63,773 nucleotides of DNA, filler included, from Reclinomonas americana ATCC 50394 (GCA_048213135.1; 6 parts of 6 records of this genome joined end to end with filler, not necessarily neighbours in it); one strand, 5' to 3'. Positions 65 to 63,717 are shown, counted from the first letter of the whole stretch. Numbers and translations are program-made. The notes: generated by a model from the sequence alone, not told the origin.

Positions 65-2813
65 ATGGCGCCGGGACCTGTGGATGTTGCGTCTTGTGTT
101 AACCATGCAGGAGGATGTGTGCTTCCCTTGTTGCTCTCTCTCGGCCTCTGTGGTGCTCCGATTCATGGCATTCTTGCTCTCCCTCCTCGCTATTCTCATT
201 CTTTGTCCCTGTTGACTCTCTTTCTTGCACTCTGTCTGGTCTCTGTCTCTCCCCTGTCTCCCTCCGTCCCTCTCCTTCTCCTCTCGTCCTCTCACCTGTT
301 GCTGCTTTCTCCATTCTCTGTTTCTCTTCTCTTTCTCTTCTCTCTCCCCAGTCTCCCCACCGTCCTCCTCCCCCATCTCTCTCCTCTCCGCCTCCCTTTC
401 TCACCCCTCTCTCCGCCTTCTTTTTCACTCGGAACCCGTTGCAGGAAATGTACATTGCCGTGATCCTGCGCGAGACGCTGAAGGTACTGTTCTTCCACGT
501 GCGTGCGTGTTTGCTGCTCGCTGGCCGCCTTGCTCACTGTTGCGCACCAGGCGCTGGAGTACCTGCATTCGTCACAAAAGCTGCATCGCGACATCAAGGG
601 TACGTACGTTTTCTCCTTCTCCGAAATGCAGCAGCACGGGGTGTTTGCAACTTGCACTGCATGCTGAATTGTCGCGGGGAAATCATGCAGCGGCCAACAT
701 TCTCGTGGCCTCCAACGGTGACGTGAAGCTTGCCGATTTTGGTGTCGCTGCGCAGGTGATGTATCTATGTGTGAGGTTAATGCCCTCCGTCGACCTCACC
801 CTCGCTCCGCAGCTCTCGGAAAACCGTACCAAGAGACACACATTTGTTGGCACACCGTTCTGGATGGCTCGTTGCGTTTCTGCTCTTGCTGCAATACCAC
901 ATCCCTCTCCCTTGTTTCACCCCGCACTCACTTTCCCCTCCCTCCGCAGCGTTGCGTTACTACAGAGCCTCTCTTGTTCTCTATCCTGGCGATTTCTAAC
1001 TCGATTGGCATGCAGTGAGGTCATCCGGCAAACCTCGGGCTACAACGAGAAGGTGCACTTGCTGCAGAGAGTGCTTGCCACTGGCCTTCTCCTCACCAGT
1101 GTCGGCACAGTGTGACATTTGGTCGTTGGGCATCACCGCGATTGAGATGGCCAAGGGCGCACCGCCGTACTCGGACCTCCACCCGATGCGTGCCCTCTTT
1201 GTCATTCCCAAGTCGCAGCCGCCACAGCTGGAGGGCAACTTCTCGCGCTCCTTCAAGGAGTTTGTGGCGGCCTGTCTGCAGAAGGAGCCAGAAGCAGTTG
1301 CGTTTCCCCGTGATACTTCGGATTTAATGTCATGCAGTCGGCGCACTCCTTCCTCGTTGCACTCCTCCGTCGTTGCACTCCTCCCTCGTTGCACTCGCCT
1401 CCCTCGTTGCACTCCTCCCTCGTTGCACTCCTTCCTTGTTGCACCTCTCCCTCGTTGCACCCCTCCGTCGTTGCACCTCCCTCGTTGCACTCCTGCCTCG
1501 TTGCACTTCTGCCTCGTTGCACTNNNNNNNNNNNNNNNNNNNNNNNNNNNNNNNNNNNNNNNNNNNNNNNNNNNNNNTTGCACTCCTCCCTCGTCGCACT
1601 CCTCCCTCGTTGCACTCGTCTCCCCTCCCTCGTTGCACTCGTCTCCCCTCCCTCGTTGCACTCCTCCCTTCTCTCGTTGCGCGCTGACCCTGCTCTCTTT
1701 CTCCCTCCTTCCCCCCTCTCAGAGACCAACCGCCCGCGAGCTGCTGAAGCACCGCTTCATCAAAAGCGCCAAGAAAACCTCCCTGCTGGTGGACCTCATT
1801 GAGCGGAGAGAGATGTACGAGGCCAACCGCGACTCTGATGACGACGATCCGGGACGTCTGTTTCGTCTCCTTTCCGTGTCCCCATTCCTGCACCTCATCA
1901 CTCACCACACGCTCCAGCAACCCACCGTCGGGTTCGGCCTCGGGCGCCGACTCCTCTGATCCGGGGTGGAGTTTCACCATGCGACCACGCGACACGCCTG
2001 GCGCAGCGTCTGGCGGCTCATCGGCCGCCGCCTCACCGGCACCCTCCCCGCAGCCGCCGTCGCACTTGTCCGCGGCCGCTTCATCCGTGGTCTCGTCGGC
2101 CACAGCCTCTGTGACACCATCCGCGTCGCCGTCGGTGTTGCAGCTGCCGTCGCCCATTCCACCGCCACGGTTCAGTCCACTGGGCGGTGCACAAGTCGAT
2201 GTTGCGTTCCGGCCGTCCACTCGTTTTCCGTGTCTTTCCCCATCACCTCCCCCTTTGTCAGATGTCTCCCACACCGCAGCAGCGAGCCAATGGTGGTGGC
2301 ATGTCACCGGCACCCGGCGAGTCGTCCTCCGTGCCGAGACCTGAGCGGTGAGTGATGGGGTGTGCGCGCAAGTTGACGTCCGTGTGGCTGATTTGTATAT
2401 GATCGGCAGAGTCCGGTCGGAGACCACCATTGCTACGTCCAACTCGCTGCTGACCAACTACGTTCTGCCGGCGCTCGAGGAGGTTCGTCTCGCTCACTTG
2501 CTGCGTTGAAATCGACACGTCACTGACGAGTGTGCACGCCGGCAGACCGGTTGCGACACACACGAAGTGGAGCGCGAACTGGTGCAAGTCGAGCGCGCCC
2601 ATCCCGGCTTCACCGAAGCGTTTATCACTGCGCTGGTCCAACGATTACGTCGGTGCGTGTCTCTTTCCTCGCTCCTGCTCCACACCTTCTCTCACCCCCT
2701 GCATCAGCACCTCGAATCCTCAAGTGGAAGCCGTGGTGCACCTGGCCGGTGGCGTCGCCGACGAACCAGACGAGTTCTCCGAGTTTCTACTGGAATGCTG
2801 GAAGGCTCGATAG
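65..2813 (+). CDS. STE20-family (GCK-III, STK24/25/26 / SvkA-like) Ser/Thr kinase, 5'-partial, multi-exon
   Basis: Spliced exons read [124 protein letters not shown]...|[14 protein letters not shown]. The C-terminal [20 protein letters not shown] resembles the GCK-III dimerisation tail. 3' exon boundaries are approximate. Confidence 0.93.
1345..1682. repeat. Intronic minisatellite, unit ~CTCCCTCGTTGCACT (contains an assembly gap)
   Basis: Many tandem variants of ctccctcgttgcact inside the kinase intron that starts at 1297. Confidence 0.9.
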
Positions 2814-3445
2814 GCGCCACCAAAGCGCGAAGCCTCCCCCGTCCCTTTAGGGGCTACCCTCTCTACGGCGACTCCAACAGCGAACTCTGTGTGTGTGTGT
2901 GTGTGTAAACTCGGGAAGCATTTTCCGTCGTTGCGTTCACTACGTGGCCAGTGATCCCACTCGTCGCGAGACCATGGATGCCAGCAGGAACAAGACAAGT
3001 GCCAGCACAATCCACCATCCACTGTGCTGATAGTTGCGCGAACCGGCCCACGACTCACTCAGAGTCGCATCCTAATCAATCACATGATGATGATGATGAT
3101 GATGATGATGCGCGCAAAGAGAGATTGTGAAGTGAGGTTACCTTGGGGAACGCCTTGCGATTGGACTGCAGTGAGAAGCGTGACGGGTACACGAAGCTGT
3201 GTCATGCCAGTGAGCGAGTGTGAGAGAGAGAGTGTCTTGTGTGTGTGCGTGTGTTTACAACGCAACTCCGTGGCCCAGCTCTCCAGTCCAGTGGCTGCTC
3301 TCTTGTCCGACTGTGCACAGGCGAGAAGTGAGCAGGCAAACAAGAGAGGAAGACACGCGTGCGCTCTCACCATTCTGTTGTTACGAGGAGGACAACTCGT
3401 CGTGTCCCTCTCTTGCAAGCATAACACCACCATGCACCGACGCAC

Positions 3446-5178: not shown

Positions 5179-5270
5179 GTAAACAACAACACGTATCATA
5201 TGTACTCTGCACACCCTCCGCCCCTCTCCGCCTCTCTAGTACTACTGCTGCGCGCCACCAAGGGAGTCCC

Positions 5271-6444: not shown

Positions 6445-6539
6445 CTTTGCTCTTTTCAGCAACACAAAACGAAGTCGATGGGCCTCGATGGTCGGAGGAC
6501 AGACACCCTTCGACGTTCTTTCCCTTTTGCTCCGACTTC

Positions 6540-8890
6540 ATGAGTGGTGAGACAATGTTATATCGATGCCTTACCTCACTGCTTGCTTATCATCGTTCCA
6601 CAGATCACGCGCTGGAGCGTCTACGTCGCACAGTCGACAGCTTCATCGCAAGAGGGCAAGCGGTGCCTGCAGTGCTGCTGGAGCAGTTGCGCGATGCACA
6701 GCATGAGCAGGTGTGTGTCCCCACCCCACTCCATCCATGCGTGTGTCAACGCGCTCATCGATCACCTGCAGTCGNNNNNNNNNNNNNNNNNNNNNNNNNN
6801 NNNNNNNNNNNNNNNNNNNNNNNNNNNNNNNNNNNNNNNNNNNNNNNNNNNNNNNNNNNNNNNNNNNNNNNNNNNNNNNNNNNNNNNNNNNNNNNNNNNN
6901 NNNNNNNNNNNNNNNNNNNNNNNNNNNNNNNNNNNNNNNNNNNNNNNNNNNNNNNNNNNNNNNNNNNNNNNNNNNNNNNNNNNNNNNNNNNNNNNNNNNN
7001 NNNNNNNNNNNNNNNNNNNNNNNNNNNNNNNNNNNNNNNNNNNNNNNNNNNNNNNNNNNNNNNNNNNNNNNNNNNNNNNNNNNNNNNNNNNNNNNNNNNN
7101 NNNNNNNNNNNNNNNNNNNNNNNNNNNNNNNNNNNNNNNNNNNNNNNNNNNNNNNNNNNNNNNNNNNNNNNNNNNNNNNNNNNNNNNNNNNNNNNNNNNN
7201 NNNNNNNNNNNNNNNNNNNNNNTCGTCCACCATCAGCTCCCGTTCCGACACCACGCTGTCGTCGGTACCGGCGCTGCTGGCCCGCGACCGCGATGCTCCG
7301 CTGGTGGAGCTCCTGCGTCCGTTCGACATCGTGTACATTGCCTGTTGCGTAGAGATCGTTGCGCCGTGGCTCGCCAGATGAGCTGAGTCGACGACATGTG
7401 GCAGGTGCACGTGTGCTGCTGATGGACGGCTCGTACTTTGTGCGCCTGTCGTGGATGAGCATCATCATGCGGCTAGTAGAGATGCCGGAGGGCAATCTGC
7501 GCGGTGAGCTCCCTCCACTCCGCTGCAAGCCCGAACGACGATGTTCACATGCTTGCTCACAGAAAAGGAGATGAATCGGTGGCTCAGCAGCGTGCCGGAG
7601 AACCTCAAGACCCCGTGTGTCGGCCTCTTCAAGAGTTGCGCGCGCACGCCGAGACATCAATCGCTATGTGTCGGACTCACTTCCCAGTCACCGCAGGAAT
7701 GTGCAAGCACAAGACTACACTGGTGGCGTCAGCGGCGTATTATTCTGCCACGGGCGCACCACCATTTCCACCGTCGCTGCATGCACATGGTTCATCTCCA
7801 CTCTTGGCCACTGTGCTCGATTGCTGCTGACTGCCTCTTGCATAGTGCCACAAGCGGTGTCGTTCGGCGGTGCTGCTGCTGCTGCTACTGGACCCTCCTC
7901 ATCCTCCTCGTCGTCTGCTGCGCCACCGATGCAGCAGTGTCGCGCTCTGCGGGGCCTCGTTGTCGAAGGTGCAAGTGGGGCAACTCCTGCATCTGTGCCT
8001 CGTGCCCAGGAATTGATTGTTGGATGCTGCACAGACCAGCGCACGGCCGACGCATGGGTGCACTCGATCACTCTGGAGTCGGCGATCGGACGGGTGGTGC
8101 TGACGGCCGATGCGGTGCACCTTCTTCTTCTTCTCTCTGTTTCCCTGCTCGACCGTTTCTCATCTTTTTTTGGTCAACAAGGTGGCATCGGCGGCTTCCC
8201 TCTCCTCCGACTGTTTGCTGGCCGCTCGCGTCTGCCTGGACTACGTGTGCACGTGCTGCGGCAAACGCGCCCGAGTCGATCGTAACGATGTGCTGTCGTG
8301 CCCTGAAGATTGCGCGCTGCAGGCTGCACTGCGACCCGATAGTGGTTCCTCACCGGCGCCACCATTCGCGTGGCACATGTGCCCAGTCGAGGTGCATTCC
8401 TCTTGTCTTTTCCATTTCTCCTGCCACCCCGCGCGCTCATTCCCACCCGTGCCCAGCTGGAACTGCTCGACACTGACGGTGAATGCGTGCGTGTAAGTGT
8501 GCCCGAATCACGAATGCGAGACTTGTGTGGACAAGGTGTCACGGATCTGCTCGGCGTCGGTGAGCGCGTGGAGGCGCCGTTCTGCGCACCAAGCGTATAC
8601 ATTCGCGCCGTGGACAGCGGCTTCCGGGCAAGCGTGCGCGAGTTGAAGTTCCCACTCGGTGTGCAGAAAATGGCTCTCTGTCTGGCCTCTTTGCTGCGGG
8701 CCAGTGCGCACGATCCGGTTTGGCACCTCTGTCTCACTCACTTGTCGCCTTGCGCAACTCACCAGCCATGATGCAGCAACACGCCATGCGGTCTGTAGTG
8801 CGCGCCTCGATCCCCGTCGATCGCGATGGTGTGCCGATAGGTTCGCAGCCGCACCTCTTGTGGGAGGGCTGGACGGGCGGTGTATGGTGA
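6540..8890 (+). CDS. Hypothetical multi-exon protein; C-terminal zinc-ribbon / possible RPA1-like OB fold
   Basis: Chained exons with GT-AG junctions across a gap. Contains YVCTCCGKRARV...SCPEDC followed by LELLDTDGECVRVSV...DLCG. Divergent from DRE2 (~95 bp between start codons). Confidence 0.5.
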
Positions 8891-9012
8891 AAATCGCGTA
8901 CATTATGTGGAGACCCTGCATTCCATTCCGCTCTACAACAACATCAACAACAACAACAAATAACCCGTAGTGGTACACGCGCCGACCAGCTGCAATACTG
9001 GAAGCTGTCGGC

Positions 9013-12000
9013 TCAACTGTCGAGTGACTGACCCGAGGGCGATCGGTCAAACTGTCCCATTTGCTGGTCGTCTTGCAACTCAAAATCGCCGTCGTTCGAC
9101 TCCACGTCCTCCTCCATGCCTGGTGCAGGGAGAGAAAGGGGTGAAGGTGATGAGGAAAACATGAGAATGGGCACCAATAAACAGTCTCATGACAATGATA
9201 CCTGCGCTGTCGACAGCCACAATGGCGGCCAGCATTGCCGCCGCAAAGTCCTCGTACGACGGCAGCTCAGGCACCTCCAAGTGATGGAAGCACGTCTGCG
9301 CATACAGACGGCCTGCTCGGACGAGAGGAGAGCGCGTGTGTGAGGCCGAGTAGCTGCTTCCTGGAGAAACACGAGGGACGCAACTCGAAGGGAACACGGT
9401 GATCTTCTGTTGGAAGCCACCGTACGGAATGGCAATCAACGAGGTGCACAGACGGAGGAATCGTCGCAGAGCTGTGAGTGACGCTCTCCCCATTGAGTCG
9501 CGCGATCACGACGAAGAGCGACAGCGCCCCACCAATAAAACCGCACACACACACCTGTTGAATCGCAATCACGCAGGAATCTCCGCGCATAGTCCGGGGT
9601 CGGTGATCCTTCGGGGAAGGACGACGAGAAGACCACATTCTGCAGCACCATGTCCGAGTCCAAGTAGTCCTCGCCGCACAGCAACAACATGAGCTCGGTG
9701 CAGTTGAGACCCTTCAGCCACAACGACATGTTGACGCGTGTGAAGCCGCGCTTGATGGCCTCCAGATGCTGTTTCCGGCAGCCAATCAACTTTTCGTAAA
9801 TCTGTGTGGACCAGAGGAGAGTGAGCGAGGTCGTACTTCTTTAACTTCCACAAGAAGCAACTGCAACCGCACCTGTTTCCTCACGTACTCGTACTTATTC
9901 TCCTCGCTCAGCTCCTTCTCTTCACCCGTATCACTGATAAAGTGCAAATACGTCGGCTCCGTGATCGTCTTGTGCAGCACGTACTCGCGCAGGTTGTGTG
10001 CGTATTGCGGATCGTACAACTGCGAGGCGTAGAAAGGTCAGCTACTCTCGAGCACACACACACATATCAATATGCGCGGCAGCCAACCTCCAGATCGGTG
10101 TACGACGGGTCAATGTCGAGCAAGTACTTGAAGAGCGACGGCGCAAATCGCGCGTGCACCGGGCGGTTGTCGATGAGGCACTTGAGCAGCGCCGCGCCAA
10201 CACTCTCGTACGCAAACTCGGCGTCGGTGTTTGGCACCGGCAAATACAACTCGCTGTCTGGGTCGGCACCGTTGATGCCACACGACGCCTCGAACAAGCT
10301 GCAACACAACACAAGATGAGGACACCAAGCTTGGATAAAAAGTGCATTTCACACGCCGACGTACCCCAGCTTCGGATCGAGAACACGCGTGAAGAATTCG
10401 GTAAACATGTCGTCCGACACGGCACCCATGTCCTCGCCGCTCTCGCCACTGTCCTCCAGCAGTTGCGTGTGCAGCGGTGCCAGCATGTCTTCGTCGAGTG
10501 TCATGGCGCTAAAGACCTGCCGCGCGTGGAAAAATAGTAGGGTTGTTAGATATTACACATTAGTGCACAACCGACTCGCACGCGTGTGTGCGTTCGCACC
10601 TCCACCACGTCATTGACAATGTGGGCCCGCGACACGGTGAGCTCGATGGGTGGGATGTCGCGGGACTTTTCGTCGCACACCTCGCGAATCTGTCGAATCT
10701 TGTCGTCGCTGTGTGCCGACACGTGAGTGCACACAGACAGACAGACACACGTGAACACTGAAGCACGGATCCGCACCTGCGAATCAAGAAGCGATCGCGG
10801 TGCAGCATGTGCGCATGCGGGGTGGAAAAGTACGGATGAGCCAGCAACTCAATGGCACTTGGGCGGTGACGCGGATCGATGGCCAGCAGGCGGCGAAGCA
10901 GTGACCTGCGATGTTTGAAAACGTCAGCGAGGCGCGACACCAGCACTCTTGTGCGACACGCCCGACTCACCTCAGTTGCGCAAACATCTCATCCGTCATG
11001 TCGCGGCGAAGGTTCTCTCGCAGTGCATCCTTGTCGGGGATCTCAATCTTGCCAAACAGGCCAGTGGCGGCGCCCGGTGGGTTGCCGAGGGACCCAGAGC
11101 TGGAGCGACGGGAGATCTTCTGCTGTGTTGTGGTGCGTGAGTGCACTGCCACGATAAGAAACTAGGAAACTGCGAGATCCGCACACGTGCCTTGGTCCGC
11201 GGTGGCGTGGTCGGTGTAAAGTAGTTGGTAAACACACTGGAGGCGGCCAGTGGCGTTGCGTAAATGACGCTGTGTGCGTCGGACTTGGGACGTGGTCTGT
11301 TTCGGGCGAGGCAAGGGTCAGTCCCTATCCCATGAACGGAAGCACAGCATCGACGCAACGAATCCTCCAGCGGCCCGAAGTGAGCCTCCAAAATCATCAC
11401 ACCGAGACTCCACATGTCCGACTTGTACGAGGCACGCGACGACGACATGGGCGACGACGATGACGAAGACGACGACGGATTCGACTTGCTCTGTGAGATG
11501 CATGAGGAGAGAGCACGGGAAATGCAATGGAGACAGGCAGAGTGCACGAACCGAAGGTGACAGCGAGCTGCTGGCATCGCTTCGAGATCGCCCGGCCGAC
11601 GAGCGGATGTGCTTGCCCTTCTTCGAGGAGCCCGACAGCGAGCGTGCATACATGGGCAGCAGGACCTCCGGCGCCGCAAATGGACGCGTTCCAATGAATT
11701 CACCTGCGCCGACAGTGAGTTTTCAGGGGCGGGGTTGGGATGCGAAAGCAGCAGGGAGAACGCAACTGGTGCGCGAGTCGCGCAGAATACTCTCGGTGCG
11801 CGCGAATCCAAAGTCGGCAATCTTCGGCGTACCCAGTCGCGTCATGAACACATTTTCTGGCTTCAGATCACTGTCCACTGCCGTCAGCATCCAATCACAT
11901 GACACTCGCGTTCCCCTCACTCTCTTTCACAAACCGATGCACGATGCGCTGACTGTGAATGTATCCGACTCCCTGCACAATCTGACGGAACACACACTCC

Positions 12001-15000
12001 AGCTCCCACGGTGTACGCTCGCCGGAACTCATCCACTCGCGCAGCGTTCCGCCCTGCATTTCCGATTGAGTGGCGGAGCTGGGATGACAAAGAGAGCGAG
12101 AATGTGTGCCACTTCGTCACCTCGTAGTACGGGAACTGAATGTAGGCTTTCTGCCAGTCGCGACCGCCCTTTGGCCGATCCTTGAAGACGGCCTCAATGT
12201 TGACCACAAATGGATGCTTCAGCGACGACAAGACGCAGGCCTGCACGCACCGAGTTACAACTCGGTGTTTCACATGAATGCAGTGAAATCGACACAAACC
12301 TCGTGCTCGAGCAGCGCCTCCTCGGAACGCGAAAACTCCTTCAGCACAGTCAGTCGACCATCGCCCTTGAGCTTGGCCAGGAACTGCGAGCGGCCATTCA
12401 TGTGAGCTCAGCATGACATAAACATCACACGCCAGGAGAACCAACGCACCACAGCGCGTCGCAGTTCACGAATAATGTCGTAATCTTCGGAGATGCGCCG
12501 CCGCACGAGAACTCCTGAGCGCACCAGTCGCTCATCAGCTGCCGCATCGGCCTCCAGTGCTCCACACAGCACCACCGTGTCGGCATGGGAAATGGAGAGG
12601 GCGCGAAGGCGCGTAGAAATGCTGCAAGTGCGCACACGTGTGTGTCAGCAGCACATTTCTATGTGGAAGTGACAACGGGATGCACTGTGTACCTCTCCTG
12701 CTTGCGAGCAATCGCCGCGACCTTGTCGCGCTGCTCATCCACTCGCGCACTCGCCTGTTACATTCGCGAATAAGCAACAAATATGATGCGCGCCACAGTG
12801 GTGGTGACACGAGACAAACCTCGGCCAGCGTGTTGGCCGCGGCACCATTCAACTCCATCTCCTTCAGCTCGTACTCCATGCGATTGGTACGCTTAAGCTC
12901 GTCGATCCACTGCGCCTTGAGACGAGCCTTGTCCTTGATCAATGTCAGAATCTCAGTACGCTCCACGTCCTCACGCTCCAGCGACCACATCATGCTGCGG
13001 TACTGCGCAAACACGTCGCCCAGCGACACCACCTCACGACGATGCTCAAAGTACCTGCGCGGAGGCCGATCAGAAGATGCACGACACGGAGGGACGAGTC
13101 AACGGAGACACAACTTGTACGACACAGAGAGCAACATGTCGAATGCGCTGGCACCCCACTTCTGCAAGGCTGCGTAGCGCTCGCACTGGATGGTGAGTTG
13201 GTTCTTGTATTCGCGCATCGTGTGCTGCACTGCTCGGTGTTGCTCTGTGACATGGATCCCGATGAACAAAGAAGAGTGTGGCTGTGAGGAACAATGGAGA
13301 TCACCACCACACCTTCTTCACACGCCGTCAGCCAGTCTTGGAACACTTTAAGCGTGTGTGTCAGCTCCTCCGCGGTGCCATGCAGCGACGACGGATACTC
13401 CGATGAACTACTTCCGCAACGTCAGTCTGAAAAGCGAAGACGGAAACATCGCCACCATTCGCCCGAGCTCACCTGCTCAGTGTCTCGGCGTGTTGCGACG
13501 AAAGCAGGGAGCACAGCTCGAGAACAGCACCGCATGCAGCTGCCGCTGTGTCCGAATGGGCGACAAGAGCGCCGAGTCGCTCACGGCCAACGCTCCTGTT
13601 TTTGATGCCGACAGTTTCATCAGCTGACACGACTCTTCTTCTGCATGGCGATGCATACACACCTCAGCTCCTGGATTTCCACGGCGCGGTTGTACAGTGG
13701 ATTGTCTTCGCCGATTGGACGCGGAGTCATGGGTGTGGTGGGGACACCAAAAGTCGCTACTATCGCGACGAAACACGGTGAGCACAACTTGAGAGGCGCA
13801 AATGGCACTTAGCGAAACAACTAAACCTTCGTCGCGTTCCTCGAAATCATCATTCAGGGGGGCGGACTCGCCGGGCGAGCCGAGTGGAGTCGGTTGCGAC
13901 GACGGCGACAACAAGAATTCGCGCAGATCGCGCCGCAGATTGTCGCGCAGCTCATACGAGTGCGCAAGGACGTCTTCCGGTCGACCCGCATCACCCTGCT
14001 GTTGCGCATTCAACGCAAACAGACTCTCGATCTCGTGCAACATGGTCTGCGCTCCCCTCGGCGGTCAGTCAGAGCACCTACTTGCTCACAGACACAAATG
14101 TACACACCTTGTGCGACTGCAGGTATGTAAACAATGCGTCGGTGCGACTGCGATGTCGCTGCATCTCTGCCTCCTGCAGCGACAGCTCGCGGCCCAATGC
14201 ATCCAGGCCACCGACCGGCAACTCGTCCTCGGTTTGTGACGGGGCACAGCTCTCGTTGATTTCTGCGAGACTCGGATCAGGTACATGATACGGAACCAGC
14301 ATGCTGCGCATTGTGTACCTTCGTAGCCGAGATTGAGTAGTGTGAGCGAGCACAAGTGACGCACCAAGAGGTGCGACGACGAGGCTCCGGCACGAATGCA
14401 CCCCAAATCCATCCACTCCACCAACTTGGTGCACTCCATTTCTGCGGATGCCGACAAATGAGCACCGTGCAGCACCGCACCTCACAGTCACACAACCATA
14501 CCAGTAAATGACACATGCGCCAGGCACCACGCGGCAAGGGCATGCACGCAGGTCGGGTACGTGGCTACGGCGAGCGGGAGGCACAGCTTGCGCACCAGCT
14601 CCTCGTTCCACCGCAGCGAGAGCGATGCAGATGCGTCCGAGTGGTAGCACAATTGTCGGAACACACTCCAGAAGGGTCCGTACGGAGCCAGACGTTGCTC
14701 GTGGACGTCTGTAGCACAGCACAGGAAAGGAGAAGGGTGATGGGTGGTGAGCATCGGAGCACAGCGGGATAAGACATTAAGTGACGCACTCATGGGGAAC
14801 AAGAACATGACCACTTGGCAGGCCAACAGCTGCGTGTCCTCCATCACCAGGGCGGTGCATTGCGCAATCTTCTCCACCACTTGCAGCGACCGCAGCAGCG
14901 GTACACACTCGGCTGCACAATTCGTCAGCAACTCTCTCCTCTCTCTCTCTCTTCACAAAAGAAAACCACCCACGACGCAACGTTCCAACGCAATGTTGCG

Positions 15001-17192
15001 CAGTGTCTCCAGCATGCGCAGCTGGATCGTGTTCTCGGTGCTGTGCAGCAGACGCAAGAGCAGCGAGAAATTCTCGTCCAAACAAATGGAGGCCCGCAGC
15101 GAAGGCACTGCATGGCGTGAAAAGTGAGCGACGCACACTTACAGGCATGTCAACCCGCGTAAATCGCACGCAACTGCGCTCGGAAATGTTGCACAATGCT
15201 TGCACGGCTTGCCGATCGACCTCCGAGTCCTTGCAGTTGAGCAAGAGCAGGAGAGAGTTGACGGCTTCGCGACCCATGTCCTTCAAGTATGTGTTGCATT
15301 CTGGGTCGAGTGGACGAATTAGCATTAACGGAGCACGTGACAGTTGCATGCGCACACACCGTCAGTGATGCAGCAGAGGGCCGCGGCAGAAGCTCGCTGC
15401 ACACGAATGTCGGTGAAGCGCGCCACGTTCACCAATGCATTCACGGTTCCCGATTGAGCCGTATGTAGTCGACCGGCCGCTGTTACCGGATGACAGTGAC
15501 GAAATGTACTGAGAACAAAGGAGGAGGGGCAGCGACGCAACAAGTGGCCACGAAATTCAGAATGACGCGCATGGCAAACACCTTGGTCTTGCTGTCGTCG
15601 ACGCCCATCAGTCGCGAGAGGGTGGACGATGGCAGGTCTCCCGACACATCTGCAACACGGGTCAGCTGGTGAATGCATAGAAATTCAACCTCGTGGGAGC
15701 GTCACACCTTCCCGGGTCACTTCATACAACGCTCGTGCCAGCTCACGCATGGTGGGCGTGCCGTTGGCAAACTCCACCGCCGCACACAGCGCCGAGAACA
15801 GACCCTTAGCCAGCAGTGTGCGACTGAAACCCGACACCGACAAGTTCGCAATGCACTTGGCCGTCTCGCCGACCACACTGGTGATGCGGTACTCGGGCGC
15901 ATCCGTCATGCACGTCTGCGAGTGCACATCACGATGAGCGGCAACTCAATGTATACACACAACGAGCGAATTAGAAAGAGACCTCCACGTCGCTCCAGTC
16001 ACTCGGCACACGGAAACCCGCACGCTCGCGTTCCCTAAACGCCTCGGCGCGATTCAGGCCACGACTGTCGAGACTCTCATCATCACCTGCACCGTTGCCT
16101 ACGACGCTGGCGGTGGCGGTACTTCCGTGACCAGCGAGCGTCCCTCCCACCGTGCCGGCCACAGACACACCACTGGCCGTCGGTGGGGCGCGACGAATGA
16201 ACGAATCGGGCGACGTGGGCGACGTCGGCAACGGCGGTGGCGACGACGCAGCCGTGTGCGAGCGCATGGACGCCACGGCAGCAGCGGCACCCTCTGAACT
16301 GCGCCACACCTCAGCCATGTGATCTTCGCGACTGCATGATGCGAACATGGTCAGAGAAGCGATCGCTCCATTGTGAGAGTGAGCGGCACGACTGGCGGCA
16401 ACGCACCGACTCGGCGTGCCAGTGTGACGACGCGGCTCCTCACGCATACCAGTGAGCGCGGCCATTTCTGGCGACGCAGCATCCCGCAGTGCGCGCTGTA
16501 TCTTTTGCGGCAACTTTGGCGTGCTCGCCGTCTGCACTCCGTGCGGTGCCGCTGACGACGACGACGACGGCGAGAGGGCCGAGGAGATGGCATTCAGAGA
16601 GTGCGACGGATCCACGAGTACCGCATGCGACTCATCACTGTGCATGGCGTTGCTGAGCAACGACGTCAACGTCTCGCACGTATGCTGCTCCGCGCTGCGC
16701 ATATCGCCCGCGGCCGCCGCAGTCGCCGACACCGACGAGGCCATGAGCGCATCGGCACACGCATCAGTGCAGCACAAGTACGACAAGGTGTGCGCCGCCG
16801 ACAACAGCATCTCCACATCGGTCTCCTCATCGCACACCGCCAGCAGCGCCTCGTGGCCACCGACTTTCAGAATCGTGGCGTGACAGTCGACTGCATGCAC
16901 ACACGATGAGAAAGCGATCGGAGAGGGAGCGGAGTGCGACGAAGTACCGTTCTCCGCCACTCGCGCCAACGCCTGCACACCGGTCTTGCGCATCGCCGTG
17001 TCATCGCCCTCACGAATCATGTTGACCAGTGACTTGGCGGCCGACACGCCCACGGTGCGAAAGTGACCGACCTGACTCGACATGTTGATGAGCGCCGAAA
17101 TCGCCGTGCGTCTCACCTCCACATTCTCGTGCAACGACAGTGCCGCGATCGGATCCACGCCCCCAAACTCCACCAAGTTGAGGCATGCGCCA
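9013..17192 (-). CDS. Giant ARM-repeat + coiled-coil + protein kinase + HECT E3 ubiquitin ligase (5' exons lie on the inverted contig 18031-18442)
   Basis: ARM repeats (GGVDPIAALSLHENVEVRRTAISALINMS; VNSLLLLLNCKDSEVDRQAVQALCNIS) at ~14300-17190. Kinase (TVLKEF, LKHPFVVNI, HR|DLKPEN, KIADFGFAR, GTRPFAAPE, SDMWSLGV, RPSAIELLAHPYF) at ~10820-12490. HECT (IELTVSRAHIVND, ESVGAALLKCLIDNRPVHARFAPSLFKYLL, LRRFLRLCTS, LYAQTCFHHLEVP) at ~9200-10720. The junctions I traced stay in frame. Confidence 0.8.
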
Positions 17193-17236
17193 CCTGCATC
17201 ACAGAGTGAGAGACGGNNNNNNNNNNNNNNNNNNNN

Positions 17237-17309
<73 letters not shown>

Positions 17310-18368: not shown

Positions 18369-18416
<48 letters not shown>

Positions 18417-18768: not shown

Positions 18769-21700
18769 TCCATCTCGATTGTGCTCATTGGTCGCCGCTC
18801 GCGCTACTTTGCCGGCACTCGGTACCTCAAACGTGGCATCAACGATCAGGGCCACGTGGCCAACGAGGTGGAGACCGAGCAGATTGTGTACGACTCGTCG
18901 TCGGTGAACGAATTCGAGCGCGAGGGCGTGTTCACGTCGGTGGTGCAAGTGCGTGGCTCGGTGCCGGTCTACTGGTCGCACGATACACAATCGAAGGCCA
19001 TTGTGGCGCCCAAGCCCACCATTATCAGTTTCGTGGACACAACGTGCAGTCAACGTGGTGGTGGTGGTAATGATGATGACACTCACATACTCTTCATTTC
19101 GACAGTGGGCCGCTACGATCCGCAATGCACGGCAGCGCGTCTCCACTTCCAGGATCTGTTCCGACGCTACGGCATGCCAGTGATTCTGCTCGATCTGCTG
19201 AAACCACAGGAGAAGAAGCCGCGAGAGATGCCGCTGGTGCGCGAGTTTGACGAGCTGGTCAATTATCTCAACCAGTTCCTGCCGGCCGAGAAGAAGATTC
19301 AGGTGACTTGCACTACGACTCTCCCACCGACTTTTCCACTCCTCGTGACTCACTCACTTGCTCTATTTGCAGCACATTTCGTGGGACTTCCGCGGCGCCG
19401 CCAAACGCAACCTCGGTCGCGCACTGACTACGATGGCCGTGATTTGCGAGGGAGCCATTTCGGAGACCAACATTTTCCGCTCCAAAGTGATTGTCGAGCG
19501 CGCGGACTGGCTGGAGGAGAGCGGACTCTACGATTTCTCCTCGCAGCCGTTCGAGGGATACACGTTGCAGCGTGGCGTGCTGCGCACGAACTGCTTGGAC
19601 TGTCTCGACCGCACCAACATTGCGCAGTTTTTGTTTGGCAAGTCGGCGCTCGCGCACCAGGTTTGATCGCACCACCATTCATGCGTGTTATGGTTGTGGG
19701 TGCGAGTCATTTCGTCTTACACTTTGACGCTTGTGCGCAGCTGCATGCACTGGGCGCCTTCTCGCGCGCCTCGTTCGTTGGTCACGAGGACATTATTCAG
19801 GCGCTGATGGATCTGTACGATGAAGCCGGTGACAATTTTGCTCTGCAGTACGGCGGCTCACGCACCGTCAGTGCCGGTGTGCATCACCGCGGCGTCAGCT
19901 GGGACATTCTGTCCAACATTCGACGATTCTACAGGTGAGTGTGTTGCTGTGCACGCCTTGCATAATCTGTTGAGCTGACAGCCGTGTGCGACAGCAACAA
20001 CTTCTTGGATCCGGAGAAACAAGAGGCCATCAACTTGTTCCTCGGACACTACGTGCCGGAGATTGGCAAGCCGCACTTGTGGGAGTTGCCTACGGATTTC
20101 TATCTGCACAACACTGCCACCGAGTTTGGCGAAGGATCGGAGAGTATGCAAGTGTTGCGTCGGAGCGGAAGCGGGGTTGGGACAGCAAGGATGTGCGCTC
20201 ACTTCGTGCCGCAGACTCCGTGACGACTGGTGGGTGCGGCCGAATGAGGAATTCGAGGACCCGCACGCATCGCTCTTTTCGCGCATCAATCAGGAGGAGG
20301 GTCTCGCCGGCGTGGCGACATGCACCGAAGAGCAGCTGTTTGACAGGCCCAAGGACGACACGTACTTTGAGCAGGCGCACCAGACGCACAAGCTGACCAA
20401 CTTTTACAAGTTGTGTTCCACTGCGACACAGCTATCTGCTTTCCTTTACCCACTCGCTCACGTACACACTCAGGCGCTTGCTGGTGCCCTACGAGAAGCG
20501 GCTGTCAGTGGCGCGTGACAGTCGAGCGGCAAGTGCGCATCATGCACGATCTTCGTTTCGTTTCCCCCCGGTGCACTGCAGCTGCCGTTGTACTCTCCTC
20601 ACTGGCATCGCACCACAGCACCAAGGGTCGCATGGCGGCCGTCTCCATCATGCCTGCTGTCATTGACGAGGACATTCGCCAGCGATTCGCCATTGTGAAC
20701 AGGATGACCAGTGCTCATGATGTTTCGTCACGCCACGTCAGCATTCTGTGGCGCGCATTGATGCTCACCGTTGTTCGTGCCTCGCAGGATTCGTTGTCGT
20801 TTATCGACGAACCGGAAGACGACAGCATGGAAAAGTATCGCGCGTACGCACACGCCAGTCGTCACGAAATGGTGGAGACGGTGAATCGGTCCTCCGAGTA
20901 CGAGTACTTTTTGTCGGGCACGCGCACTACGGCAATGCTGGCTGTTGCGTACCCGTTGTCGACCAAACCAGGGTGGACAGTTTGCTGAAGGGATGTTCCC
21001 ACTCTGATGTGCAGACTGGTGGCCAGAGTCGAGGCATCTCGGTGCTTGCCGGTGCCATGTCGCTGGGTCACACTGTGGTTCGTGTCGTATGGCGGTGATT
21101 GGGTGGAGCCTGCTCACTGACCTGTGCTGTGTGCATCGCGCAGCAAGGAGCCAGTCAGTTCAGCGGCGTGAACGCGGTGGGCGAGTACTACCAGAAAATG
21201 TACGATCGGTTCCTGGCGCCAGAGATGTCCCCTGATATCGACGACCTCAAGGTGCGTGTGTGTGTGTGTGCGTGAGAGTGCTTGCAGCCCTTGACCACGA
21301 CTCTCATTATTTCCTCGTTCTGTTGTGCGTGTGTCAACACAGCGCTTTGACGCGTACGCCCGCGCGGACCAGGCCGGGCGATATGTCATGGGCACAGTGC
21401 CGCTCAGCGTCGGAGTGTGCGTCCCACCCCCTCTCATTGTCACCCCCCCTCTCTACGTATTGATCTCACCTGGTGCGCAGTGAGTTCCAAAACACACTCG
21501 ATACGCTGCGTCGTGAGGCCGCCGTCGACTACCGAGTGGGCCTGTCCAGCAGCGCCTCGAGCTCCACGCTCTACGAGGACGGACTGCTGGCTGTATACGG
21601 TATTTCCTACAGGGACGAATGTGTTACGCAGTGACGGTGTTTGACCCTTGCGTGCGCCATGCAGGCGAGGAGCGCGATGACGACGAAGACGAGTCCACGG

Positions 21701-40724: not shown

Positions 40725-43700
40725 TCACTTGACGTGCACCCACCACGTCGGCGCCGTATCCACTCCTTGCGCGCGCTGCCTCTCCGAGCTCTTGGCCAGT
40801 CGGCGGTAGTGGTGCAGGACGGGCTCAGTGTAACCATTCGGCAGATCGCATCCCTCAAACACGAGGGCGAGGGCGGCACGCATGGCCAGATTGCGGTGGC
40901 TGACCTCCAGTGGCTTGTACGCGCGATCGCCGGCGTTTTGCTGATTGACCACACGGGCCATGCGCGCGAACGAGTCAAACACCTGCTCGGGGGTGACGAT
41001 TTCGTGCGCAAGCCAGTTGGCCACGTGCTGCGAGCTGATGCGCAGCGTGGCGCGATCCTCCATCAGTGGCACGTCGCTAATGTCGGGCACCTGACACGAT
41101 ACCGATTGAGTGGGCATCGTCGTCGATGTTCGCTGGGCAGCGCAGACTCTCACCTTCGAGCATCCCACACCCTGGTCGACCCATCGCACCACGTAGCCGA
41201 GCATGCTCTGCACGTTGTTGTCCAGCTCGCGTGCAATCTCCTCTCCACCCAGCTTGACATCGGCCGGCAGCAGCGGCGGCGACAGCAGGTCGGTCAGCGA
41301 CGCGCGCGGTCCGCCCTCCTTCAGCACCGCCTGCTTGGTGCGCACATCCACTTGGTGGTAATGCAGGGCGTGGAGAGTCGCGGCGGTGGGACTCGGGCAC
41401 CACGCGCAGCTGGCGCCGGCCGCCGGGTGGCCGACCTTGGTGGCCAGCAGGCCCTTCATGTCGTCGGGAGCTGGAGAGGAGAAGGAGGGGGAGAGATGAG
41501 AAGAGACGAGCAGAGAAGTGAAGAAGAAATGCCTCTCTCCCAACTCACCTGCCCACATGCCCTTGCCGATCTGGCCGTGCCCGACGAGACCGAGCGACAG
41601 GCCGGCGTCCACGTTGCCGTCCTCGTAGGCACGCATGAATGGTTGGCTTTTGATTTGTGCTTTTGGCAGCATCGCGCCGGCAATCATGCTGCGAAGGGGG
41701 AAAGGGGGTGTGAGAAGGAGAGGGAGAAAGGGAGGTAGGGAGGGAGGGAGGGAGGGAGGGAGGGAGGGAGGGAGGTAGGGAGGGAGGGAGGGGAGGGAGG
41801 GAGGGAGCGGAGGGAAGGGAGGGGAGGAAAGGGAGGGAGGGGAAGAGAAGGGGAATGGGAAGGGACGGAGAGAGGGAGGGAGAGGAAGTGAAAGGATAGG
41901 GAGGGAGTGAGGGAGTGAGGGAGGGAGGAAGCGATGGGGATAGATAATGAGTGTGACTGCGATCAGCGACTGCAGCATGTGAGAGCATGCAGTGAATGTG
42001 TGTGGGAGAGAAAGAACGAGAGAGAGAGGGAGGAAAGGAAGAAAGGAGAAAGGGAAGGGCATAGAAAGAAGGAGAAGCACAAGAAGATTAAGAGGAGCGC
42101 AGTCGCGGTGTTGGTCACTGCTGCTGGTGGCGGTAAGGAGAGGAAGAAGCGACGTCGGAACAAGTGAGTGAGAGGGAGCGAGAGTGAGAGAGAAGGGAGG
42201 GAGAGTGAAAGGGAGACGGAGTGAGTGAAGAGAAAGAGGGAAGATAGGGAAGGGCTGCGAGTGAGAGAAGGACAGGAGTACGCGTGAGCGTGTGTGTGAG
42301 AGATGGAAAAGAGTGGTAGGGAGACAGGGAGGGAACGGAGTGAGTGGATGTGAGACAAGGGAGGATGAGAGAGATGGAAGTGATAGCGATTGATTGCAAT
42401 CAGTGTGCGAGAGAGNNNNNNNNNNNNNNNNNNNNNNNNNNNNNNNNNNNNNNNNNNNNNNNNNNNNNNNNNNNNNNNNNNNNNNNNNNAGATGGAGAAT
42501 GAAAGATCGCGCCTGTGAGTGACTGATAACGTGTGGAAGAGTGCCGTGAGAGAATGCATGGGCGAGTGAGCGAGTGAGCGTAATTGTTGAGAATTGCCCG
42601 ACCTCTCCCAAAGCCACGAGACACTCACCTCGTGTGGATCTCATCGCCAGTGCGATCGAGGAAACCGGTGTTGATGAAAAACACGCGTTCTGCAGCCTCT
42701 GAGATGCACGCGGCAATGTTGACACTCGTGCGACGCTCCTCGTCCATGATGCCGATCTTAATCGTGCGTGGTGGCAACTCCAGAGCTGTGACGATGTGAG
42801 CGCATGAAGCGCAAGCCCTCCCGCCATCACTACGCGCGCACCTTCTTCCACCGCCGCAAAAAAGTCACACACAAACGCCACCTCCTCCGGACCGTGCATC
42901 TTCGGCTTGACAATGTACAGGCTGCCTGCTCGCAGATGGTGTCGCTCGGCAGCCGGCTTGCGCAGCTCATGGAGTGCCGCCACCGCAGACACCAGCGCTG
43001 CACAACCTCCGTATGTGAGAACAATCACACATTCCAACTTCTTCCCCTGCAAAGCACTCACCATCCAAAAAGTGCTCGGGCGTCGGCTCGCCATCTGCCG
43101 TGCACACAGCATCGCTGTACATGTGCAGACCGACGTTGCGAATGAGGAGGAGACTGCGACCCGGCAGCGCGAACGAGCGACCATTGTGTGGCGCCACGTA
43201 GGTGCGATCGGGTGCGAGACCGCGCGACACGGTGCGCCCGTCTTTGCTGAACGACGCCTCGAGCGTGCCCTTCATCAGACCCAGCCAGTTGGTGTAGCAG
43301 CGCGCCTTGTCACGCCCGTCCACCACCGCCACACTGTCCTCCAGGTCCATGATGGTGCTGAGCGCCGACTCCACCACCACATCGTACAGTCCCGCCCGGT
43401 GCGTGCGGCCAATCGGATGCTGCGGGTTGATGAGGATCTCCACGTGCAGGCCGTTGTGGCGCAGCAGCACGCAAGCGAGTCGCTTGGATTGTGCGTCGAC
43501 GCGGTAGCCCACAAATTGGTGCGTGTGTACCAGGCCTACATTGGCGTTGGTGGCGGTGCGCAGTTGCAGGCGATTGCCGTGAAGGACTGGAGGGGAGAGG
43601 ATGTGAGGGAAGAGGCAAGGGAAGAGAGGAAAGGAGACTGGACACGCACCGAATTCGGTGATGGAGCTGAACGGGGTGCCGCCCGTGAGTGGGAACGTGG

Positions 43701-45302
43701 CGGTGAGGAACTCCTCGACCTTGGAAAACACGGCTGCACCGCGTGCGGGGTTGTACTTGCCGTCGGCGTTGCGGCGTAGTGCGCCCTCCTCCGGCACGGC
43801 GTTGGTGCCGTAGAGGGCGTCCAGCAGACTGCCCCAGCGTGCATTGGCCGCGTTCAGGGCGAAGCGCGCGTTGTCAATGGGGCACACCAGCTGCGGTCCG
43901 GCCACGTCGGCCAGCTCCGGGTCGACGTTGGTGGTGGTCACCGTGCGCCACTGTGATGATGAGAAGGGAGATGAGAGGGTGGACAAGAAAGGGTCATGGA
44001 GGAGGAGGGGGTGAACCTTGGCGTCCTCCAGCGGCGCAATGTAGCCAATGTCGCGGAGGAAGAGGGTGTAGGCGGCGACGTCCATCGGTTTGTCGGCGTG
44101 GTCCTCGTGCCAGCAGTCGATCCAGGACTGCGAAAAGAGGGAAAGGATGAGGGAAAGGGAGGAAGGGGGGAAAGGGACGGGGGAGGAAAGGGGAGGAAAG
44201 GGAAAGGGAATGGGGGAAGGGGGAAGGAGGAAGGGGAAGGGGAAGGGGAACGGGAAGGGGAAGGGGAAGGGGGCAGGAGAGTTGCAGAGACGGAGGCAGA
44301 GCGGAGGAAATCTGACACACAGAAGTGGCTACTGAAACAAGTTGGAGATGACAGCAAACGCTCGTTGAACGAATTGTGTGTGCGTGTGCGTGTGTGTGTG
44401 CGCGCGAGAGAGAGAGAGCGAGAGTGACCACACCGTAAAATAAGACAAAGAGGGTGCAGTCGACCTTGCCGAGAACGAAGCGAAGACAGAAAGACGAATT
44501 AAGAGGAGTCAGCGATTAGGCGAGAGACGGGAAGGAACAGCCGATAGGACGATTGAATTGTGCGGAGAAGGAAAAGACTAAAGACAACAGCGAAATAGCA
44601 GTGAGGGCAGGAGAACCCGTTTCAGTCAGCAGAGAACTGTACTCCATCAAAGAGAAGTGGACAATTAGGCGAGAAAAGACGGAAGACCAGCAGGGAGATG
44701 GCAGAGAGGACAGAAGCGAGAACTGCACTCAGCCAAAGAGAAGAGGACAGACTGCCAAACAGCAGAGACGACAGCAGAGAGGGCACACGAAGGAATTCCT
44801 TACAAGCGGCAGAGAACTGCACTTAGCCAAAGAGTTGAGGACTGATCAGGCGAGGAATGAAGGAAGACCAGCAGAGAGGTGGCACAGAGGACAGAAGCGA
44901 GAGCTGCACTCTGCCCAGGAGCGAAGAAGATCAGGCGAGGAGGGAGAGCAGACAGCAGAACCAGAAGCGAGAACTTCGCTGATACTGCACACCCCCAAAG
45001 AGTAGATGACAGAAAGGATGACACCACTCAGTCAGCAGAGAGCTGCACTCCGCCGTAGAGAAGAGGACCACTTTCTTCCCCTCTTAGCCTCCTTCTCCAT
45101 TCCTCATCACCTGCAACTCATCACGCCGCTCCAACAACTCGCGATTTCGCTTCCCAAATCGCTGCGTCAAATCGCCCAACAATCGCCAAAACCGCTCCGC
45201 ACTCAACCCCGTCCCCGCCACCAGCTCATCACGCACAAACGACACCAATATCGGTTCCACACGGAGTCCACTGCGAAGAAATAATGAAGAGAATCTCAGC
45301 AT
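40725..45302 (-). CDS. glcB: Malate synthase G (bacterial GlcB type), 8 exons
   Basis: [166 protein letters not shown]. Confidence 0.96.
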
Positions 45303-61780: not shown

Positions 61781-62666
61781 ACGGCCTTCGTTGTGATGAT
61801 TGAGAGAGAATCGGAGGACACGCGCTCCGGGACGCGAAGTCTCGACTTTGTGTGGGCATCAGTGCGGTTGAGAAGCGCAATGGGTTAAGCGGATGTGGAA
61901 CGCTAAGTGGATTCAAGCTGCAATACGAGCAGAAAGGCCGCCGGTCAAGTGCGAAGTCATCAGCTGACTTGAATTGCTGCATGGTCTGTCCGTTCCCTCC
62001 CTGACGACCTTTCTCCCTCTCTCTCTTTCTCTCTCCTCTTCCTCCTCCTTGTCAACCTTCTGTTCTCTCCCTCACCTCTTAGTCCCCCTTCTCCTCTTCT
62101 CTCCCTTCCACTCTCTCTCTCTCTNNNNNNNNNNNNNNNNNNNNNNNNNNNNNNNNNNNNNNNNNNNNTTAATTAATTAANNNNNNNNNNNNNNNNNNNN
62201 NNNNNNNNNNNNNNNNNNNNNNNNAAAGGGGTGGTGATGCGCTCTCCGCAGACAAACACGAGGAAAAACAAAATAAACGGAAAACGACCCCGCGCCCACT
62301 GACGGTTACTCCTGCGTGATGCTCACGGGCATCGCATGCACACACACACACACACAATGCACACACAGATCGAGAGGGGAGAGAGAGAGACGAGGGGGAG
62401 GAGGAGGGAGAGCGCGTGCGTACCGAAAAATTCCGACCGCACTCCGTCCACCGGCAATCCATTGCACTTCATTCAACCCAACGACAGCCGCTCCAGCGTG
62501 TGATAGGGCACATGCCCAGCACACCTCCACATATCACCGAGTAGAAAGCGTCAAACGAGCGACGTAGAATGGAAAGAAAAAAGTGCGGGACAGACGTAGC
62601 TCGCGGGCACGGGATTGTCACCTTCCCACCCATTGTCATCGTGTGTGTTTGCGCGCGTGTTTGTGA

Positions 62667-63717
62667 ATGTACTTCCTGTCGCGGCTCGCAGTAAGGTCAG
62701 CAGGTCTGGGTGCAGTGAGGAGACCTGCAGCGATGTGGGGCGCGCCCGCGGCCGGCATCATGGCCATGTCGACTGAAGCTGCCCCTGCTCCCAAGGAGAA
62801 CGTTGCGTGGCTGTGCGTCTGTGTGCGCGTATGTGTGTGCGTACAGGAGACGAGCGCTGTGCGCGTTGCAGCATGACGTGTTGTTGTTGTGATGCGTGAT
62901 GAGATGCTGTTGCGAGCGAGAGTGAGATGTCGACCTTGCTTTCTTCTCTCCATGGGGCGCCACACACGCACGCGCACCCTCCTCTCTCTCTCTTCACGCA
63001 AGAATGCTGACATGCGCACATGCAAACAGGCTCCACCACCGCCGCACATTCAGGCACTCGTGGACGAGATCTGCAAGCTGTCGATTCGCGATGTGGCGGT
63101 GCTCACCAAGGCGCTGCGGGTGCGTTGGTCACAGCCAAGAGAACGACATCCTATGTGTATGTGTCTCTGACTTGTGTGTGTGCAGACGGAGCTGAACATT
63201 CCGGAATCTGCTGGCATTCCCATGTCGTTTGCCGGTCAGTCCTTTGTCATTGTCTCCCTCTCACTCTGTGTGTGCGTGTGCAACTCACACTGAGCATGCA
63301 TGCAGGTGGTGCACCGGCTGCGGCGGCTGCGGGTGCTCCTGCTGAGGCTGCTCGTTCCGTCTCACTCTTTGTCATTGTTGTTGCCGTGCTGGTTGTTGAC
63401 TGTCGTTCTTGTGCGCACAGCGGCCAAGGCCGAGAAGACGGCCTTCAATGTGAAGCTTGAATCGTTTGATGCTGCTCAGAAGCTGAAGCTCATCAAGGAA
63501 GTGCGTGCCCTCATACCGTCACTGGGACTGAAGGAGGTTTGCAAGCACGTCGTCGGTCTTGCTTGTTTGATATGCGGTGCGTCTCACCCACGGCATGCAG
63601 GCCAAGGATTTGGTCGAGGGTGCTCCGTCAACCCTGAAGGAGGGCGTCACCAAGGAGGAGGCGGCCAAGTTCGAGGCCAAGCTGAAGGAGGCCGGTGCCA
63701 AGATCGTCTTGGAATAA
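62667..63717 (+). CDS. MRPL12: Mitochondrial ribosomal protein bL12 (L7/L12)
   Basis: Presequence [11 protein letters not shown]..., [86 protein letters not shown]...[11 protein letters not shown]. Confidence 0.95.

Follow-up and report, generated by a model that had tools for sequence, protein, structure and literature searches.

GTTGCGT as a candidate second class of 5' splice sites on short GT-AG introns of Reclinomonas americana

We analyzed a 63,773-base window made up of six scaffolds of the draft genome of Reclinomonas americana ATCC 50394 (GCA_048213135.1), which are linked by N44-TTAATTAATTAA-N44 spacers and contain additional N gaps, and found that GTTGCG, mostly in the form GTTGCGT, is a frequent start of its introns. 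All introns described here are predictions from the DNA sequence, obtained by gene models, homology scans and motif tests. Analysis of these predicted junctions shows that GTTGCG donors exist, that they are abundant and that they are linked both to a base other than G at the exon end (position -1) and to G at intron position +6. The reading we favor, with a probability of about 55%, is that GTTGCGT and its rare variants GTTTCGT and GTTCCGT form a second 5' splice-site class on otherwise ordinary short GT-AG introns, recognized one base out of register by a partner with G opposite the C at +5. The shifted register and the accompanying change in a small nuclear RNA (snRNA) are what we infer from these statistics. 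The scaffolds have a G+C content of 45-60% and the genome is that of an intron-dense eukaryote; genes of the window were named from exon-wise Pfam matches.

Abundance of GTTGCG donors

Gene models were made with a small generalized hidden Markov model (HMM) in which the periodic coding, intron and background Markov chains were trained on the window itself. Introns were GT...AG and 20-1500 nucleotides (nt) long, the donor signal was a bare GT only (donor-agnostic), and strand conflicts were settled by an exon-level rule. In each version of the donor-agnostic model GTTGCG ranked first among donor hexamers: it began 17 of 181 predicted introns in the first model, 14 of the 117 introns lying between confident exons and, once a learned acceptor and branch term had been added without any donor term, 15 of 113 confident introns (13%). 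With a learned first-order donor model it began 19 of 112 confident introns (17%), and we take 15/113 and 19/112 as the unbiased share of the class. Independent position frequencies predict 0.86 to 1.5 GTTGCG donors against the 15 observed, and the hexamer accounts for 68 of 7,711 GT sites (0.88%; p = 1e-13 for 15 of 113 donors against that share). The earlier claim that this is a major donor class and not a rare exception was therefore upheld, and the class also came through the frequency check proposed for it, being far above the independent expectation and linked to the -1 base. A curated set of 120 introns combined the 112 confident introns with eight added by hand, six in a kinase gene through homology and two (27501 and 27616) at low confidence; GTTGCG begins 25 of the 120, but this 21% is an upper reading, inflated because six of the eight hand-added introns belong to the class.

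The original prediction listed 17 GTTGCG donors, and the hexamer is present at every one of these positions on the strand claimed, with the reported spread over five scaffolds also correct. Eight of the 17 were recovered by the GT-only model (20154 and 62802 on the plus strand; 27179, 33989, 34400, 34581, 50335 and 51158 on the minus strand) and four in the kinase gene (86, 871, 951 and 1297, plus strand) had homology support. Less firm were 7635 (+), 27501 (-) and 27616 (-), which came only from the learned-donor model, two of them at low confidence, while 30083 (+), whose intron meets an N gap, and 58309 (+), absent from the last model, fell outside the curated set, which holds the other 15. 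Ten further GTTGCG donors were found beyond that list, at 7344, 20944, 22200 and 37882 (+) and at 9384, 11359, 11766, 14981, 15174 and 15541 (-).

Apart from their donors, the introns of the class look like the others in the window. All 25 are GT...AG, 23 of them ending in CAG and two in TAG, and GCAG and ACAG are the commonest 3' ends both in the class and among other introns, with GCAG first in both. The branch motif CT[CGA]A[CT] occurs in 21/25 class introns and 67/95 others, at a median distance from the 3' end of 16 nt and 17 nt, respectively. Lengths are the same as for all introns (median 67.5 nt), with 19/25 at 60-90 nt. An in-frame stop or a length not divisible by three is found in 19/25, so that removal is needed to keep the frame. 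With GT/AG ends, a shared branch motif and branch distance, and restoration of frame or protein, the class has the features of U2-type GT-AG introns.

Introns in the window have CTCAC or CTGAC as their branch motif, some 16 nt before the 3' end. In it C or G replaces an A of the classical TACTAAC, and the branch-binding box of U2 may be worth reading too.

Counts that make no use of coding potential gave the same picture. On both strands together there are 68 GTTGCG sites against 51.7 +/- 7.1 in shuffled sequence, a number that none of 100 shuffles reached, and 33 copies of GTTGCGT against 11.8 +/- 3.6 expected; in the window neither GTTGAGT (12 vs 10.8 expected) nor the GTTHCGT variants as a group (16 vs 17.9) are in excess. 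We also measured, for each GT hexamer, the share of sites with a CT[CG]A[CT]-N7-22-YAG module ending 50-100 nt downstream. GTTGCG came top of the 256 GT hexamers, at 22/68 against a background of 741/7,708 (9.6%; p = 2e-7), and GTTTCG came second with 8/18. The 33 copies of GTTGCGT include 20 curated donors, and sense exons are free of the heptamer; among the remaining copies those at 2201, 30083, 38724 and 58309 resemble further donors. GTTGCG sites that are not donors number four in sense exons and 14 on the antisense strand of exons, a scarcity which, on these small numbers, would agree with strong cryptic donors being avoided.

Exon ends and the shifted register

The last exon base before the 25 curated GTTGCG donors is A in 12, T in eight and C in five, and is never G, as had been predicted; among the other donors G occupies this position in 68/95 (Fisher p = 1e-11). 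The donor-agnostic set gave the same contrast, with G at -1 in 0/15 GTTGCG donors vs 55/98 others (p = 2e-5). A is enriched at -1 of the class (12/25 vs 20% background, p = 0.0016). The companion claim that GTGCGT and GTGAGT donors mostly follow G did not hold, since only 11 of 21, about half, do so. Among donors with T at +3, those that follow G carry G at +5 (GTTTGT, GTTTGC, GTTGGY) and those that follow another base carry G at +6 (GTTGCG, GTTTCG, GTTGTG), which agrees with the proposed tie of the class to the -1 base and to G+6 over G+5. T stands at +7 in 20/25 class donors. Scoring the class at -2 and -1 with the ordinary-donor columns for -3 and -2 gave a log-likelihood of -68.1, compared with -97.4 for the unshifted columns and an only slightly lower -73.3 for exon composition; the exon positions thus behave as if moved by one, -1 resembling the normal -2 with no preference for G.

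Use of the motif as a donor is high and specific. GTTGCGT is a donor at 20 of its 33 copies and GTTGAGT at none of 12 (Fisher p = 3e-4), and the corresponding figures for ordinary donor words are 12/86 for GTGAGT and 9/107 for GTGCGT, which are equally common among ordinary donors.

Under the reading we favor, G+1 of the intron would take the place of the last G of the exon, U+3 would replace U+2, and G+6 and U+7 would replace G+5 and U+6, with cleavage staying before the sole GU. The C at +5 would face a G, carried either by a main U1 with an altered 5' end or by a variant U1. The heptamer would be fixed because the exon pairs almost nothing and the intron side must then be near perfect. The lack of G at -1 is the reason for preferring a true shift over a bulged U with normal exon pairing.

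Pairing energies were calculated with RNAduplex on idealized 11-mers with U in place of pseudouridine, a simplification that tells against leaning heavily on the values: with the standard U1 5' end GUUGCGU gave -1.3 kcal/mol (a duplex of three base pairs) and GUUGAGU -5.7, so that the standard end offers GUUGCGU a useful duplex in neither register. With an ACGUAC-type end, which has G at U1 position 5, GUUGCGU gave -7.2 and GUUGAGU -2.5, and the optimum was the shifted duplex of three pairs, a 1x1 mismatch and five pairs; an ACGCAC end brought the shifted GUUGCGU duplex to -9.2. Since GTTGAGT is unused and GTTGCGT reaches only -1.3 with the standard end, a partner with G opposite C+5 is predicted. 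The earlier suggestion that the class is the GTGCGT/GTGAGT donor moved by one base is accordingly kept as regards the shift and given up as regards a standard U1.

Several observations weigh against this reading. G precedes any GTT in only 207/1,323 cases in the window, which reduces the significance of 0/25 to p = 0.014 against composition. The A at -1 contrasts weakly with non-donor GTTGCG sites (12/25 vs 12/43), and T at -1 (8/25) is not predicted from pairing to U10. If the main U1 carried G at position 5, C at +4 should be raised in ordinary donors; these have C in 24, T in 22 and A in 18 of 68, a weak preference for C, and for this reason a variant U1 or another factor stays as a rival. 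Homology fixed only five donors, namely 86, 1297, 33989, 34581 and the related GTTTCG at 19028. The scans left 34400, 20154, 20944 and 22200, and likewise the related donor at 20410, unseparated from neighboring sites because they lie in unconserved linkers. For the long or motif-poor introns at 7344, 7635, 15541 and 20944 the evidence is the gene model. The agnostic model also misplaced ordinary donors (34246 for 34240, 33689 for 33672), and it merged the kinase introns of 756-1015 into one.

Alternative recognizers and known systems

The strongest competing explanation, which we consider unlikely but well short of negligible, is a dedicated second recognizer of GUUGCGU beside an unshifted main U1: a variant U1-like snRNA, a transformed snRNA of the minor spliceosome or an RNA-binding protein. 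It would account for the fixed heptamer without exon-side consensus and for the strict specificity for C+5, and it agrees with the larger share of GTTGCGT copies used as donors than of GTGAGT or GTGCGT copies; the absence of a strong C+4 in ordinary donors fits an unchanged main U1. Against it, the branch and 3' signals equal those of other introns, and the A enrichment at -1 and the switch between G+5 and G+6 would be expected from a shift on one U1. The class is like U12-type introns in being a second donor class whose intronic word is long and fixed and whose exon side lacks a consensus. It is unlike them in its branch motif and distance, which are as in other introns, and a search of the window for RTATCCTY donors gave one match, no more than chance predicts, which lies on the wrong strand. 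Neither the RTATCCTT donor nor a TCCTTAAC-like branch site was seen in the class, and a U12-type assignment was rejected.

Improbable, in our estimate, is a standard U1 that bulges out a U at +2/+3 (GU-U-GCGU) and pairs normally with the exon end. The word is indeed GTGCGT plus one T, and experiments in human cells have established the bulge +2/+3 and +3 registers, according to the sections of PMC4856993 that deal with them. In that arrangement -1 stays opposite C9 and G should be favored there as in other donors, yet it was found in 0/25 vs 68/95, and the candidate register was rejected on this count; moreover, the standard end yields only the weak three-pair duplex, and GUUGAGU should do better but is unused.

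We regard it as very improbable that the class is an artefact of gene modeling, with the real junctions at nearby GT or GC sites and GTTGCG merely frequent near exon ends. Models were wrong at other junctions, homology failed to separate four class donors from their neighbors, and a GC donor 3 nt downstream scored only 4-7 bits lower in the scans. An artefact would, however, leave unexplained the first rank of GTTGCG in the coding-free module test, the threefold excess of GTTGCGT that matches the number of donors, the five homology-fixed donors, the frame logic in 19/25 introns and the lack of GTTGCGT in sense exons.

Introners, known from Micromonas, Aureococcus and others, are mobile elements that generate introns. 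If the class consisted of copies of a single introner-like element that had spread recently, the identical 7-nt starts and the narrow lengths of 19 introns would be explained, but this is scarcely credible, since the length range is that of all introns and the interiors of the 19 short class introns, with the first 8 and last 25 nt removed, were no more alike than those of 30 random sets of the same size (mean local alignment score 5.66 vs 6.00 +/- 0.20; best pair 11 vs 12 on average). Whole-intron similarity among copies is thus lacking, which already contradicts this candidate as well as the shared origin suggested earlier; with nothing in common beyond the splice signals, the class introns are not copies of one element.

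Roca and Krainer reportedly described shifted-register 5' splice sites in human genes in 2009. Like such human sites, the GTTGCG class would have all U1 pairs moved by one position, cleavage at GU, a poor score in the normal register and U at +3; human shifted-register sites are a rare exception, whereas the GTTGCG class makes up 13-17% of introns. GUUGCGU also has an obligatory C+5 that standard U1 leaves unpaired, and its human-type, A-containing analogue GTTGAGT is unused here. The parts of PMC4856993 (Tan et al. 2016) on registers describe the shifted U1 register for rare human sites, and Table 3 of that paper gives 68 + 51 = 119 of 201,541 human 5' splice sites for bulge +2/+3 and +3. The class resembles the human bulge and asymmetric-loop registers treated there in that an additional nucleotide separates GU from the G pairing with U1 C4; as presented in those parts, the bulge registers keep exon-end pairing, in contrast to the GTTGCG class with no G at -1.

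More tentatively, and as a possibility on which we would not yet rely, this lineage may combine two 5' splice-site codes within the same genes, an AG|GTG.GT type and GUUGCGU, the latter read by a changed two-register U1 or by a second U1-like snRNA; it would be the first such case for about one sixth of introns and would permit a one-nucleotide exon. Precedents for a changed U1 exist in Archamoebae: in the sections of Roy and Bowser (bioRxiv 10.1101/2022.06.08.495308) on U1 5' ends, Entamoeba has ACAAAC with GUUUGU and Mastigamoeba ACGUAC with GUGCGC, while Thecamonas and Mamiellales retain the standard end although their donors are C-rich. As far as those sections go, the pairing region of U1 can change and a G at position 5 of U1 accompanies C at +4, as predicted here; the archamoebal case is a single donor consensus shifted together with U1, whereas here two classes coexist in the same genes and one would be in another register. 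Reclinomonas americana is not an archamoeba. The best homologues of its spliced models reach 41-51% identity for a Sac-domain gene, 42-47% for a GRWD1-like gene and 70-75% for the kinase and are scattered over eukaryotes, with no close relative among them for these three genes, and a mitochondrial ribosomal protein gene is present.

Rfam at the gathering threshold gave no match over the whole window, hence no snRNA gene in it. Among metagenome contigs searched for relatives carrying a 548-amino-acid exon there were 54 pattern matches and none was confirmed. A literature search, in which supplements were not covered, found no description of GTTGCG, GTTGCGT or GUUGCGU as a splice donor among the papers listed, and for shifted registers and divergent U1 it returned only human, tunicate and Entamoeba cases. 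Non-canonical registers are so far known only as rare exceptions in mammals, and how one U1 reads thousands of intron starts is an open question. If the interpretation is true, the class would provide a natural experiment on what the spliceosome needs when the exon provides no pairing and would test co-evolution of the U1 5' end and the donor outside Archamoebae. It would also explain the likely mis-annotation of such genomes by gene finders trained on G|GTRAGT.

Individual introns and genes of the window

For homology scans, HMMs were built from full-length homologues and every stop-free GT/GC-AG variant lying no more than 45-60 nt from a junction was scored; the HMM for the kinase, an STE20/MST-type gene identified by Pfam matches on its exons, was built from 62 homologues. 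Its first GTTGCGT intron, in phase 0 at 86-444 (+), was the best of 14 variants (383.0 vs 376.6 bits) and, at 359 nt, is not a mini-intron. The GTTGCGT intron at 1297-1722 (+), 426 nt long, was the best of 62 variants (383.0 vs 377.0 bits), and the Pkinase profile stops at 249 of 263 in the exon upstream of it. This intron contains an N gap and a minisatellite at 1343-1680 (+) with a 16-nt unit, GCACTCCTCCCTCGTT, in about 11 and six copies flanking the gap; the joins between units recreate GTTGCAC, one base from the donor word.

Between these two introns the kinase gene contains a predicted single-nucleotide exon, C950 (+), the second base of the proline codon in the kinase APE motif. It is flanked by the GTTGCGT intron at 871-949 (+), which has its own CTCAC branch motif and a GCAG end, and by the GTTGCGT intron at 951-1015 (+), with a CTAAC branch motif. 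For region 871-1015 the model with C950 scored 383.0 bits vs 370.2 for the sole other stop-free micro-exon model, and the best single-intron alternatives gave 377.8 bits (TT-AG) and 373.2 (GT-AG); non-GT intron starts, scanned in this region only, scored below GT starts. Homologues with W[MT]AxE have the proline in 99/99 cases. As the DNA stands, the APE motif is encodable only with the predicted C950 exon flanked on both sides by GTTGCGT introns, both of which have a branch motif and a CAG of their own.

In the GRWD1/RRB1-like gene, one of the WD40 protein genes recognized by Pfam matches on exons, three GTTGCGT introns lie on the minus strand. That at 33925-33989, with its acceptor at 33925, was the best of 41 variants (394.5 vs 390.5 bits) and that at 34516-34581 the best of 35 (394.5 vs 389.8 bits); the third, at 34336-34400, is in the donor-agnostic model and falls in an acidic low-complexity region where homology was indecisive.

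The gene at 18769-24136 (+), called FIG4 in the original prediction, has 20 exons and fuses a Sac domain with DEP and DUF547, all three found as Pfam matches on exons. Related donors had been reported here and in MRPL12, and one of them is well placed: the GTTTCGT intron at 19028-19105 (+) was the best variant by 13 bits (675.5 vs 662.4), with the Syja_N profile continuing across the junction. The GTTGTG donor at 20410 (+) is only plausible, homology being indecisive, as is the GTTCCG donor at 63354 described below. Homology was equally indecisive for the GTTGCGT intron at 20154-20214 (+) and the GTTGCGA intron at 22200-22268 (+), both in the donor-agnostic model, and for an ab initio GTTGCGT intron of 200 nt at 20944-21143 (+) from the learned-donor model. 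The Sac-DEP-DUF547 architecture also occurs in the best matches, which include JGI proteins without names and others named for Andalucia, Diplonema and Euglena, and their Sac part shows 48-51% identity.

On the minus strand between 9 and 16 kb the class includes a GTTGCGT intron at 9313-9384 in a HECT-domain region, from gene models with branch and 3' motif analysis, and two in a second kinase gene. One of these, at 11270-11359, comes from gene models and its acceptor is uncertain (63 or 90 nt). The other, at 11704-11766, is in the donor-agnostic model, and the exons flanking it match the Pkinase profile at 123-147 and 171-193; by their residue counts the two join gap-free. GTTGCGT introns at 14913-14981, with an in-frame stop within, and 15108-15174, of a length not divisible by three, are in the donor-agnostic model, and a 241-nt intron with the same heptamer at 15301-15541 is in the gene models. 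A single gene of about 37 exons, with HEAT/ARM repeats, a protein kinase domain and a HECT domain, is predicted at 9029-17193 (-) and may be a genuine giant multidomain gene or a fusion of adjacent genes.

Elsewhere on the plus strand, a GTTGCGT intron at 7344-7404 was found ab initio only, from gene models, and its branch motif was not found by regular expression; a weak GTTGCGC intron of 400 nt lies at 7635-8034 (learned-donor model only), and another GTTGCGC intron at 37882-37946 is in the gene models. On the minus strand the EF-hand gene has a GTTGCGC intron at 27120-27179 (donor-agnostic model) and two low-confidence GTTGCGT introns at 27436-27501 and 27549-27616, which came from the learned-donor model and were added to the curated set by hand. 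A GTTGCGC intron lies at 50269-50335 (-) in the donor-agnostic model, and a GTTGCGT intron adjoins the PWWP exon at 51097-51158 (-) in gene models that include the set without a donor model. Two candidates complete the list: a GTTGCGT donor after a strong exon at 30083-30144 (+), where the gene-model intron enters an N gap, and a 74-nt GTTGCGT intron with a CTCAC branch and ACAG end at 58309-58382 (+), present in the first models and dropped by the last.

Pfam matches on exons further identified a CIAPIN1 gene, a HECT gene, the second kinase gene with ARM/HEAT repeats, a STAND NTPase gene, the EF-hand and PWWP genes, a metallophosphatase gene, the MRPL12 gene and a malate synthase G gene. In the last, at 40729-45302 (-), matches to MS_N, the MSG insertion, the TIM barrel and MS_C fall on successive exons, and since spliceosomal introns interrupt it, this malate synthase G-type gene is a nuclear gene of Reclinomonas americana.

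The MRPL12 gene contains a 228-nt GTTGCGT intron at 62802-63029 (+), found by the donor-agnostic model. At 63235-63420 (+) the gene model has one 186-nt intron, and the alternative is two introns around a 48-nt exon, the second being a GTTCCGT intron at 63354-63420 (+). Both versions are in frame and the comparison is not decisive; the two-intron version, in which the 48-nt exon is kept, gives the protein an Ala/Pro-rich hinge typical of L7/L12.

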